A DNA stretch of 64,000 nucleotides from NCBI GenBank assembly GCA_945874665.1, contig CAMCHJ010000002.1, forward strand, positions 37,937 through 101,936, read 5' to 3'. Shown in pieces: positions 30,294-30,456 of the stretch. Source of the stretch: Chitinophaga pinensis (GTDB lineage: Bacteria > Bacteroidota > Bacteroidia > UBA7662). The notes below the pieces were generated by a model, which saw only the letters and a program-made list of their open reading frames with translations, did no database searches and was not told where the DNA came from. Every line of letters begins with the position of its first letter. The first letter of the stretch is position 1. Position numbers and translations under genes: made by a program.

Positions 30294-30372
30294 GGGGGAT
30301 TAGCTCAGCTGGCTAGAGCGTCCCGATAGGCATAGCCGTATCGGGAAGGTCATCGGTTCGACTGAGTGAAAC
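30294..30372 (+). pseudogene. Degenerate tRNA-Ala-like partial tandem duplicate (tRNA pseudogene or fragment).
   Basis: The first 27 nt (GGGGGATTAGCTCAGCTGGCTAGAGCG) and the variable loop plus T-arm 5' half (AGGTCATCGGTTCGACT) match the downstream tRNA-Ala. The anticodon arm is replaced by an aberrant 8-bp stem and 10-nt loop. The 3' T-stem strand and acceptor strand are missing. Confidence 0.6.
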
Positions 30373-30379
30373 AAAAAAA

Positions 30380-30456
30380 GGGGGATTAGCTCAGCTGGCT
30401 AGAGCGCTTGCATGGCATGCAAGAGGTCATCGGTTCGACTCCGATATCCTCCACCA
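30380..30456 (+). tRNA. tRNA-Ala (anticodon GGC) with encoded CCA.
   Basis: Hand-folded cloverleaf. Acceptor GGGGGAT pairs with ATCCTCC and includes the G3:U70 Ala identity pair. The D-arm is GCTC/GAGC. The anticodon stem is CTTGC/GCAAG with loop ATGGCAT, giving anticodon GGC. The T-arm is ATCGG-TTCGACT-CCGAT. Confidence 0.9.

Follow-up and report, generated by a model that had tools for sequence, protein, structure and literature searches.

The 64,000-nucleotide (nt) stretch of Chitinophaga pinensis DNA analyzed here (assembly GCA_945874665.1, contig CAMCHJ010000002.1, positions 37,937 to 101,936; hereafter the window) carries a disabled look-alike of a transfer RNA (tRNA) directly in front of the tRNA gene that it resembles. 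This element, an 86-nt leader unit best described as a hairpin-capped pseudo-tRNA-Ala, occupies 30294-30379, as delineated by repeat comparison, predicted fold, and the covariance model R1, and abuts an intact tRNA-Ala(GGC) at 30380-30456; both lie on the forward strand, as do the promoter box, lpxB, the terminator-like hairpin, and the GIY-YIG gene described below. Two blocks of exact identity relate them, one of 27 nt at a spacing of 86 nt (30294-30320 and 30380-30406) and one of 17 nt (30347-30363 and 30424-30440), such that the unit matches positions 1-26 and 44-60 of the tRNA exactly. Retained are the acceptor 5′ strand (30294-30300), the D arm (30303-30319), and the variable loop together with the T-arm 5′ half (30347-30363). 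The 17-nt anticodon arm, in turn, is swapped for TCCCGATA-GGCATAGCCG-TATCGGGA, a 26-nt signature hairpin at 30321-30346 (TCCCGATA GGC ATA GCC G TATCGGGA) with a predicted folding energy of -15.3 kcal/mol (z = -4.4 against shuffles). The unit departs from the tRNA after GGTTCGACT and runs into GAGTGAAACAAAAAAA, ending in an A-rich tail (30364-30379); because of this divergence, both the T-stem 3′ strand and the acceptor 3′ strand are missing.

The downstream copy is a canonical tRNA-Ala(GGC), called by ARAGORN and scored at 63.7 bits by the Rfam tRNA model; as read from its sequence, it possesses the G3:U70 pair (GGGGGAT / ATCCTCC), a discriminator A, and an encoded CCA. At 30294-30379, by comparison, ARAGORN calls no tRNA, its sole call in the region being 30380-30456, and the Rfam tRNA family (RF00005) returns no match even at E ≤ 10. 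With its 3′ strands missing and its loop closed, the unit is not a tRNA and cannot function as one. An earlier, sequence-only reading of this stretch had described the two 27-nt copies 86 nt apart, the canonical downstream tRNA, the retained and lost portions of the upstream copy, and the hairpin in place of its anticodon arm, all of which is borne out; it had also allowed that the upstream copy might prove to be an unusual but valid tRNA, for which neither program gives any sign.

The pair is embedded in a compact neighborhood. Its upstream flank and synteny anchor is lpxB (29147-30259; Pfam LpxB, E = 2.4e-91). Downstream, an intrinsic terminator-like hairpin followed by TTCGTTT (30460-30486) precedes a small GIY-YIG nuclease gene (30494-30754; Pfam PF01541) with an in-frame TAA at 30653-30655. 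The open reading frame (ORF) matches PF01541 with E = 5.7e-8 over its 53-amino-acid N-terminal part (30494-30652) and with E = 1.7e-15 when the stop is read as tyrosine; the gene is likely a pseudogene. Further downstream, at 30782-30802, GGGGGAAGCGCTCTA combines a GGGGGA start with tRNA positions 21-30 in reverse complement (TAGAGCGCTT); the resemblance may be fortuitous, or it may be left over from an earlier rearrangement.

A family of hairpin-capped units

The window unit is one of many. A scan of metagenome contigs, in which the 15-nt tRNA-Ala 5′ end had to occur twice at a spacing of 70-100 nt, recovered at least 120 loci where one to five units precede an intact tRNA-Ala; at least 130 distinct units were recognized on independent contigs. 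The scan biases the frequencies and isotype range of the listed loci, and the taxonomy of most of them rests on a promoter box and a few named records. In almost all listed loci the upstream copies share the architecture seen in the window and are not tRNAs; true tandem tRNAs account for only about three arrays. Among the 121 arrays that were parsed, the window's own included, 99 have a single unit, and 15, 3, 3, and 1 have two, three, four, and five, respectively. The last copy is an intact tRNA in 108 arrays, the other 13 reaching the end of their contig, and this tRNA is tRNA-Ala in 107 cases (GGC 72, TGC 32, CGC 2, AGC 1) and tRNA-Val(TAC) in one (L137; L-numbers designate the compared loci and contigs). 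Eight arrays reside within ribosomal RNA (rRNA) operons, between tRNA-Ile and tRNA-Ala. Specificity for tRNA-Ala cannot be claimed from these numbers, because the scan pattern itself imposed a tRNA-Ala 5′ end and few other tRNAs served as controls.

The family is defined by tRNA positions 1-26, a hairpin built on TCCCG/CGGGA, RGGTC with the T-arm 5′ half, and an A/T-rich tail, with an intact tRNA of identical sequence directly behind. Searching the loci with a profile yielded 139 upstream units, every one of which lacks the acceptor 3′ strand. The window unit is a clear member, scoring 75.6 bits (E = 1.7e-17) against covariance model R1 and aligning with 88 other distinct units. Common to these units is a hairpin with a conserved TCCCG/CGGGA base, usually extended by two variable pairs and closed by a 4-nt loop. 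Across the 89 distinct units, 96.6% of the alignment cells in the 7-base-pair stem are paired, and five of the seven pairs have changed on both sides. The resulting covariation score of 0.254 compares with 0.068 in shuffles, none of 500 of which reach it, and with at most 0.08 in slid controls, marking the hairpin as a structure conserved through compensatory changes. With five register-shifted alignment rows set aside, G-U occurs in eight stem cells and A-C in one, an excess that is suggestive of a fold in the sense strand. That the upstream copy might be a tRNA-derived structured element, as the sequence-only reading had offered, therefore stands both as to its derivation and as to its conserved hairpin.

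Conservation is unevenly distributed along the unit. The best-kept part spans positions 8-48, the core domain of the tRNA, and identity to the tRNA, about 0.95 at positions 44-48, is down to about 0.5-0.7 across most of the T arm. At the polymorphic positions 16, 26, and 44, units match their own tRNA in 43-45 of 47 cases, which indicates gene conversion or repeated local origin. The site of the hairpin also varies, being the D loop, the anticodon arm, or the T loop. Rfam searches of the window region and eight typical loci at permissive thresholds found no family that covers the unit. Literature searches with the literal sequence, with pseudo-tRNA and leader terms, and with GIY-YIG and tRNA returned no description of such units, work on the phage nuclease SegB being the sole analogue. 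Hairpin-capped tRNA look-alike repeats are thus apparently a widespread and undescribed family.

Where the hairpin sequence might have come from was considered separately. TCCCG/CGGGA is the ordinary anticodon stem of some phage tRNA-Met and tRNA-Val, but the examined loci yielded no host tRNA of this kind, which speaks against a loan from another tRNA of the same organism. A general genomic repeat resembling repetitive extragenic palindromes is likewise rejected, the hairpin occurring four times in 536 kb of control loci and once in the 64-kb window; since it occurs there only once, it was not copied in from elsewhere in the window. TCCCG...CGGGA hairpins were also seen directly after the 16S rRNA 3′ end and in the 5′ domain of 23S rRNA, the latter judged from its flanks (L121 363, L144 4134, L123 1095-1130, L125 484-520), and in L232, L236, and L094 the terminator of the tRNA or cassette itself takes the form of a TCCCG/CCCCG hairpin with a T run behind it. 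Hairpins of this sort, in stable RNAs or terminators, may be the source of the signature hairpin or share a factor with it.

Several loci bear structures of other kinds. L176 (reverse strand, start 544) contains a pseudo-tRNA-Ala of full length that is intact in its acceptor stem, G3:U70 included, and in its T arm, and carries the capped hairpin instead of its anticodon loop; such a molecule might in principle undergo processing and alanine charging but be incapable of decoding. A different class of leader is found in L086, L089, L106, L109, and L172 (e.g., L086 9376-9560), upstream of a CCA-encoding tRNA-Ala(TGC) with a sigma-70-type promoter. Here a 27-nt direct repeat, made of 12 nt of 5′ flank and tRNA positions 1-15, brackets an insert of about 64 nt that comprises a GNRA-capped hairpin and a stretch antisense to the D-arm region of the tRNA. 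L098 and L184 represent a third class, in which the tRNA 5′ end is copied in both sense and antisense orientation.

Leader position, copy number, and the linked nuclease gene

The -7 promoter box of Bacteroidota is TAnnTTTG. About 40 of 96 arrays have an exact match whose start precedes the first unit by 17 to 24 nt (mode 19), and the window has a box with one mismatch, CATATTTG, at 30276-30283, 18 nt before the first base of the unit. No such box was found in the unit tails, and a scan for sigma-70 promoters came back empty. As the box lies ahead of the first unit and is absent from the tails, the unit is expected in the 5′ leader of pre-tRNA-Ala, with which it should be transcribed, and cleavage by RNase P at the first base (G1) of the intact tRNA would remove this leader. 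In the fold of lowest predicted energy, the 207-nt precursor has the 5′ strand of the unit paired with the 3′ acceptor strand of the tRNA, so that, on thermodynamic grounds alone, unit and tRNA could compete for that strand.

The unit tails hold a further motif. A boxA-like sequence (GTTCTTTAAA or TGCTCTTTAA) is present in 8 of 102 distinct tails, compared with 0.12 expected from shuffles; it was counted in L090, L135, L142, L149, L157/L199, and L197, and similar motifs were seen by eye in L124, L143, L203, L223, and L224. It resembles a motif noticed by eye after tRNA-Ala in L158 and L168, and its combination with the hairpin recalls a boxB-boxA antitermination module.

Orthologous loci differ in how many units they hold. 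The order lpxB, tRNA-Ala, GIY-YIG gene, and M20 peptidase is common to the window and nine Joint Genome Institute (JGI) contigs (L213-L221). Over 530 nt, the five JGI relatives that were aligned share 94% identity with the window; their promoter is the same, their tRNA matches at 77 of 77 positions, and divergence is concentrated in the GIY-YIG region (about 10%, vs. 1-2% in the lpxB end, promoter, and tRNA). The relatives L213-L220 lack exactly the 86-nt unit, with clean boundaries. At the other extreme, the more distant relative L182 has four units, bearing the same unusually long hairpin and the same tail GACTGAGTGAAAC, while retaining the order of an lpxB-like 3′ end, tRNA-Ala, and a GIY-YIG gene; between its hairpin and that of the window, a T-A pair has become C-G by changes on both sides. 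The orthologous locus therefore holds zero, one, or four units in JGI relatives, the window, and L182, respectively, as expected from unequal recombination between identical blocks, and the comparison of syntenic loci that the sequence-only reading had recommended thus shows the unit not to be fixed. Among species-representative genomes, lpxB synteny revealed the unit in none, a result that is uninformative given that the best relative is just 58% identical. A simple tandem duplication that included the 5′ flank is ruled out, because the tail of the unit differs from the promoter-proximal flank.

Small GIY-YIG genes accompany the arrays far beyond the window. PF01541 matches number 35 in 767 kb of array loci and 0 in 536 kb of control loci, and the gene lies downstream of the tRNA on the same strand in all 24 cases with a measurable distance. 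It is present in 28 of the 92 loci with sufficient downstream sequence (at least 700 nt), or about 30%. The encoded proteins are 80-120 amino acids long, typically about 85, and contain PF01541 only, as does the ORF of L182; in both the window and L182, then, a GIY-YIG domain is encoded beside its presumed target gene, and a separate DNA-binding domain is lacking. In the JGI relatives, the codon corresponding to the window's TAA is TAT, but a 5-nt deletion further on and a TTG start are found instead. Given these different lesions, the gene is seemingly decaying independently in both lineages.

Sampling from the protein side, via GIY-YIG, captured ten independent loci, nine of which have the gene directly after an intact tRNA: tRNA-Ala in five, tRNA-Asn in two, and one each of tRNA-Asp (Ignavibacteriales) and tRNA-Pro (Fidelibacterota). 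Nine of the ten also carry pseudo-tRNA copies with the TCCCG/CGGGA hairpin, and the 3′ end of the ORF often extends into the D arm of a downstream copy. The signature hairpin also marks a tRNA-Val leader unit and a tRNA-Lys array that is accompanied by a GIY-YIG gene. The association thereby spans several tRNA isotypes and more than one phylum. Such downstream pseudo-tRNAs, or trailers, are marked by the same hairpin and number about 35-50 in the examined loci. Degenerate in their 5′ strand, they frequently keep the 3′ part and terminator intact, and some have a second hairpin replacing the T loop. The hairpin edit distance between leader and trailer has a median of 2 within a locus and 5 between loci. 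A candidate decayed trailer downstream of the GIY-YIG gene in the window was rejected, as its local alignment scored no better than shuffles.

At the position of the window's live tRNA, L182 has a trailer pseudo-tRNA, a terminator of the window type, and a degenerate second GIY-YIG copy; upstream of that trailer lies a newer tRNA with an intact GIY-YIG gene, so that L182 has one extra tRNA and GIY-YIG cassette relative to the window. Judging from sequence arrangement, this is the pattern expected for successive insertions at a tRNA. Tandem and decayed GIY-YIG copies recur elsewhere, two cassettes being found in L182, L224, and L240, and the order of tandem repeats, terminator, and small nuclease gene is shared by the window, L182, L203, and L222. 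In L226 (1030-1950), 3′-type modules, each composed of hairpin, T arm, acceptor 3′ strand, and terminator, are arrayed in tandem with a period of about 120 nt, three before the GIY-YIG gene and two after, so that amplification affects trailers too and not leaders alone. On the reverse strand of L182, positions 5726-5761 match the Rfam abiF RNA motif at 44.6 bits, which exceeds the gathering score; the match lies just upstream of a putative Abi-like ORF and a few hundred bases past the tRNA and GIY-YIG cassettes, which suggests a variable, defence-island-like neighborhood.

A proposed selfish cassette and its rivals

SegB, a free-standing GIY-YIG homing endonuclease in the tRNA gene clusters of phages T4 and T6 (PMC2330249; PMC13096335), cuts tRNA genes at RAWTSGAAC and drives a recombination-dependent tandem amplification that collapses without selection (PMC13096335). 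We read RAWTSGAAC as the reverse complement of the T-loop sequence GTTCSAWTY. Because SegB would thus cut within a T-loop sequence and the units described here end in the T loop, we favor, with a probability of about one-half, a reading of the unit as a recombination-driven repeat that forms one arm of a selfish, GIY-YIG-linked tRNA-locus cassette, which we read as common in Bacteroidota and neighboring phyla. Such a cassette would consist of a live tRNA gene, often with a small GIY-YIG gene just downstream, flanked by disabled, hairpin-capped copies of the same tRNA: leaders upstream that hold the 5′ part, and trailers downstream that hold the 3′ part and meet the nuclease ORF. By analogy with SegB, the nuclease would break tRNA genes, recombinational repair off a cassette-bearing copy would install the cassette, and pseudo-copies would remain on either side of the live tRNA. 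The hairpin would move with the cassette, keep the copies non-functional, and break up their homology with the live gene. Copy number could then shift by unequal recombination between the identical 27-nt and 17-nt blocks, the window presumably having arrived at a state in which the nuclease gene is dead and a single leader repeat is left. Directly observed are the family, its hairpin structure, the promoter position, the variation between 0, 1, and 4 units, the association with GIY-YIG genes, and the occurrence at several tRNA isotypes and in several phyla. Whether the nuclease is active, what it would cut, in which direction transfer would go, and what the hairpin would contribute is what we infer from the likeness to SegB and from the arrangement of the loci.

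Several observations weigh against this proposal. The putative nucleases, of about 85 amino acids, amount to a bare catalytic domain and lack the DNA-binding domain of known homing enzymes. Where at least 700 nt of downstream sequence is available, about 70% of the arrays, those in rRNA operons among them, lack a GIY-YIG gene, and the hairpin appears indifferent to its presence, the mean uninterrupted stem measuring 6.7 base pairs in 64 loci without the gene and 6.6 base pairs in 28 loci with it. The conserved hairpin base, the covarying upper pairs, and the G-U excess point to selection on a single-stranded fold, and a mere scar would leave this conservation and covariation unexplained. Moreover, the unit tail was not copied from the promoter-proximal flank, and since the scan pattern demanded the 15-nt tRNA-Ala 5′ end twice, the frequencies are biased.

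The same facts lend themselves to a tentative alternative, namely that the unit is a functional RNA, made within the pre-tRNA and acting on its own. It might serve as a decoy or antitoxin, binding the GIY-YIG protein or some other factor with affinity for tRNA and presenting an uncleavable cap at the loop position, or it might regulate the folding or processing of tRNA-Ala by competing for the 3′ acceptor strand, the pairing that the predicted precursor fold displays. Congruent with either role, the unit retains a D arm, a capped anticodon stem, a variable loop, and a free acceptor 5′ strand behind a promoter; its core at positions 8-48 is best kept while the T arm decays; the base of its hairpin is conserved while the upper pairs keep only their pairing, with the G-U bias noted above; the hairpin is equally intact with and without a local GIY-YIG gene, in rRNA operons as elsewhere; and the order of repeats, terminator, and nuclease gene recurs. 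However, genomes 94% identical in the aligned region cleanly lack the unit with their tRNA unchanged, which means that the unit is dispensable, and copy number ranges from 0 to 5. The variable placement of the hairpin, together with pseudo-copies on either side of the nuclease gene, fits poorly with a single defined RNA-protein complex, and no Rfam family matches. A more specific and rather doubtful version would make the hairpin-capped pseudo-tRNAs working RNA partners of the small GIY-YIG nuclease, the TCCCG/CGGGA hairpin being its binding site and the tRNA-derived flanks matching its target, in the manner of a substrate-mimic antitoxin or of a guide or scaffold. The target-matching flanks would be the free 5′ strand in leaders and the 3′ part overlapping the ORF end in trailers, and the RNA would either protect host tRNAs or tRNA genes as an antitoxin or direct the bare catalytic domain to tRNA genes as a guide.

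Explanations confined to the window itself fare worse. A private accident, in which a lineage-specific tandem tRNA duplication left an upstream copy to decay, would account for the exact 27-nt and 17-nt blocks, the 86-nt period, and the absence of the unit from close relatives. It is nonetheless improbable: at least 130 distinct units on independent contigs share the same non-tRNA hairpin and truncation point, L182 has four copies with the window's own long hairpin and tail, and the unit tail was not copied from the sequence upstream of the tRNA. Slimmer still are the chances of an attachment-site relic, left by a tyrosine-integrase element once resident in the tRNA gene. tRNA genes are classical integration sites, and partial tRNA duplicates mark the ends of integrated elements. 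Here, however, the duplicated part is 5′ rather than 3′, the copies follow one another at 86 nt without any intervening element, the neighbors are lpxB, the GIY-YIG gene, and the M20 peptidase in the same order as in relatives devoid of the unit, and attachment sites have nothing that corresponds to the hairpin; none of the examined loci showed an integrase-bearing element with the unit at its boundary. The sequence-only reading, which offered a recombination or integration scar as one of two options, was right in that the indel is clean and of a recombination type, and right also that a 5′ duplication is atypical of integration relics. What does not survive is the scar as something private to this genome or left by a classical integrase, because a large hairpin family recurs upstream and downstream of several tRNA isotypes in linkage with small GIY-YIG genes. 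Its other caveat, a mis-joined or collapsed repeat, can for practical purposes be set aside. The independently assembled Logan contig L081 (4113-4172) does stop within the first 27-nt copy, as assemblies often do at repeats, and units therefore likely fragment short-read assemblies; yet it reproduces the same junction of lpxB, promoter, and first copy, and the same architecture appears in more than 100 independent contigs from many projects and assemblers.

It is usual to regard a tRNA gene as a static, single unit. Many tRNA-Ala loci of the Bacteroidota type, and elsewhere loci of tRNA-Asp, -Asn, -Pro, -Lys, and -Val, instead bear tandem disabled copies with a shared hairpin and often a tiny nuclease gene, making this a recurring genetic system, not a one-off scar. 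Were the cassette reading true, these loci would be a widespread chromosomal counterpart of phage SegB-type homing at tRNA genes, and would give rise to rapid changes in copy number within the 5′ leaders of essential tRNAs, rRNA operons included. Were the unit instead a functional RNA, it would found a new class of tRNA mimics that keep the D and anticodon half rather than the acceptor half, and, were it a partner of the nuclease, a new kind of RNA-dependent nuclease system riding on tRNA loci. On the practical side, units confuse tRNA annotation and break assemblies, and covariance model R1 offers a direct means to map them.

Comparison with known systems

The closest parallel to the proposed cassette is SegB. 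In both systems, a GIY-YIG gene adjoins tRNA genes, and the SegB site, read as a T loop, finds its echo in units that end in the T loop and vary between 0, 1, and 4 copies. SegB is, however, a larger protein with a DNA-binding domain. It is also a phage enzyme that amplifies intact tRNA genes along with its own gene, whereas the proteins here are chromosomal, about 85 amino acids long, and known from sequence, and the copies are disabled by the hairpin. The tRNA duplicates produced by integrative elements offer a second likeness, in that a live tRNA is regenerated beside truncated copies, and tandem pile-ups arise as they do in L182, L224, and L240. Those elements, in contrast, duplicate the 3′ part, are kilobases long, and encode an integrase; the loci described here lack an integrase, repeat the 5′ part of the tRNA on its upstream side at an interval of 86 nt, and show a hairpin where the anticodon arm would be.

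Type III toxin-antitoxin systems of the ToxIN type share with these loci a promoter, short, non-coding, structured tandem repeats, a terminator, and a small nuclease gene. Gene order fits this system and protein family does not, the protein having a GIY-YIG domain and not being a ToxN/AbiQ/CptN-type RNase, the kind of enzyme that in type III systems processes the repeats and is inhibited by them. The repeats here are, in addition, derived from tRNA and 75-100 nt long, a live tRNA intervenes between them and the terminator, and pseudo-copies are found downstream of the nuclease gene as well.

The unit can finally be set beside tRNAs and their mimics. Positions 1-26 and 44-60 identical to the adjoining tRNA-Ala liken it to a tRNA or tRNA pseudogene (RF00005), from which the absence of an acceptor stem, an anticodon loop, and a T stem sets it apart. 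Non-decoding tRNA mimicry is already represented by the tRNA-like domain of transfer-messenger RNA (tmRNA), the tRNA-like structures at viral 3′ ends, mascRNA, and YrlA. These RNAs keep the acceptor and T-arm half, which is recognized by RNase P, the CCA-adding enzyme, or synthetases. The hairpin-capped unit keeps the opposite half, with its D arm, anticodon stem, and variable loop, and dispenses with the acceptor 3′ strand.

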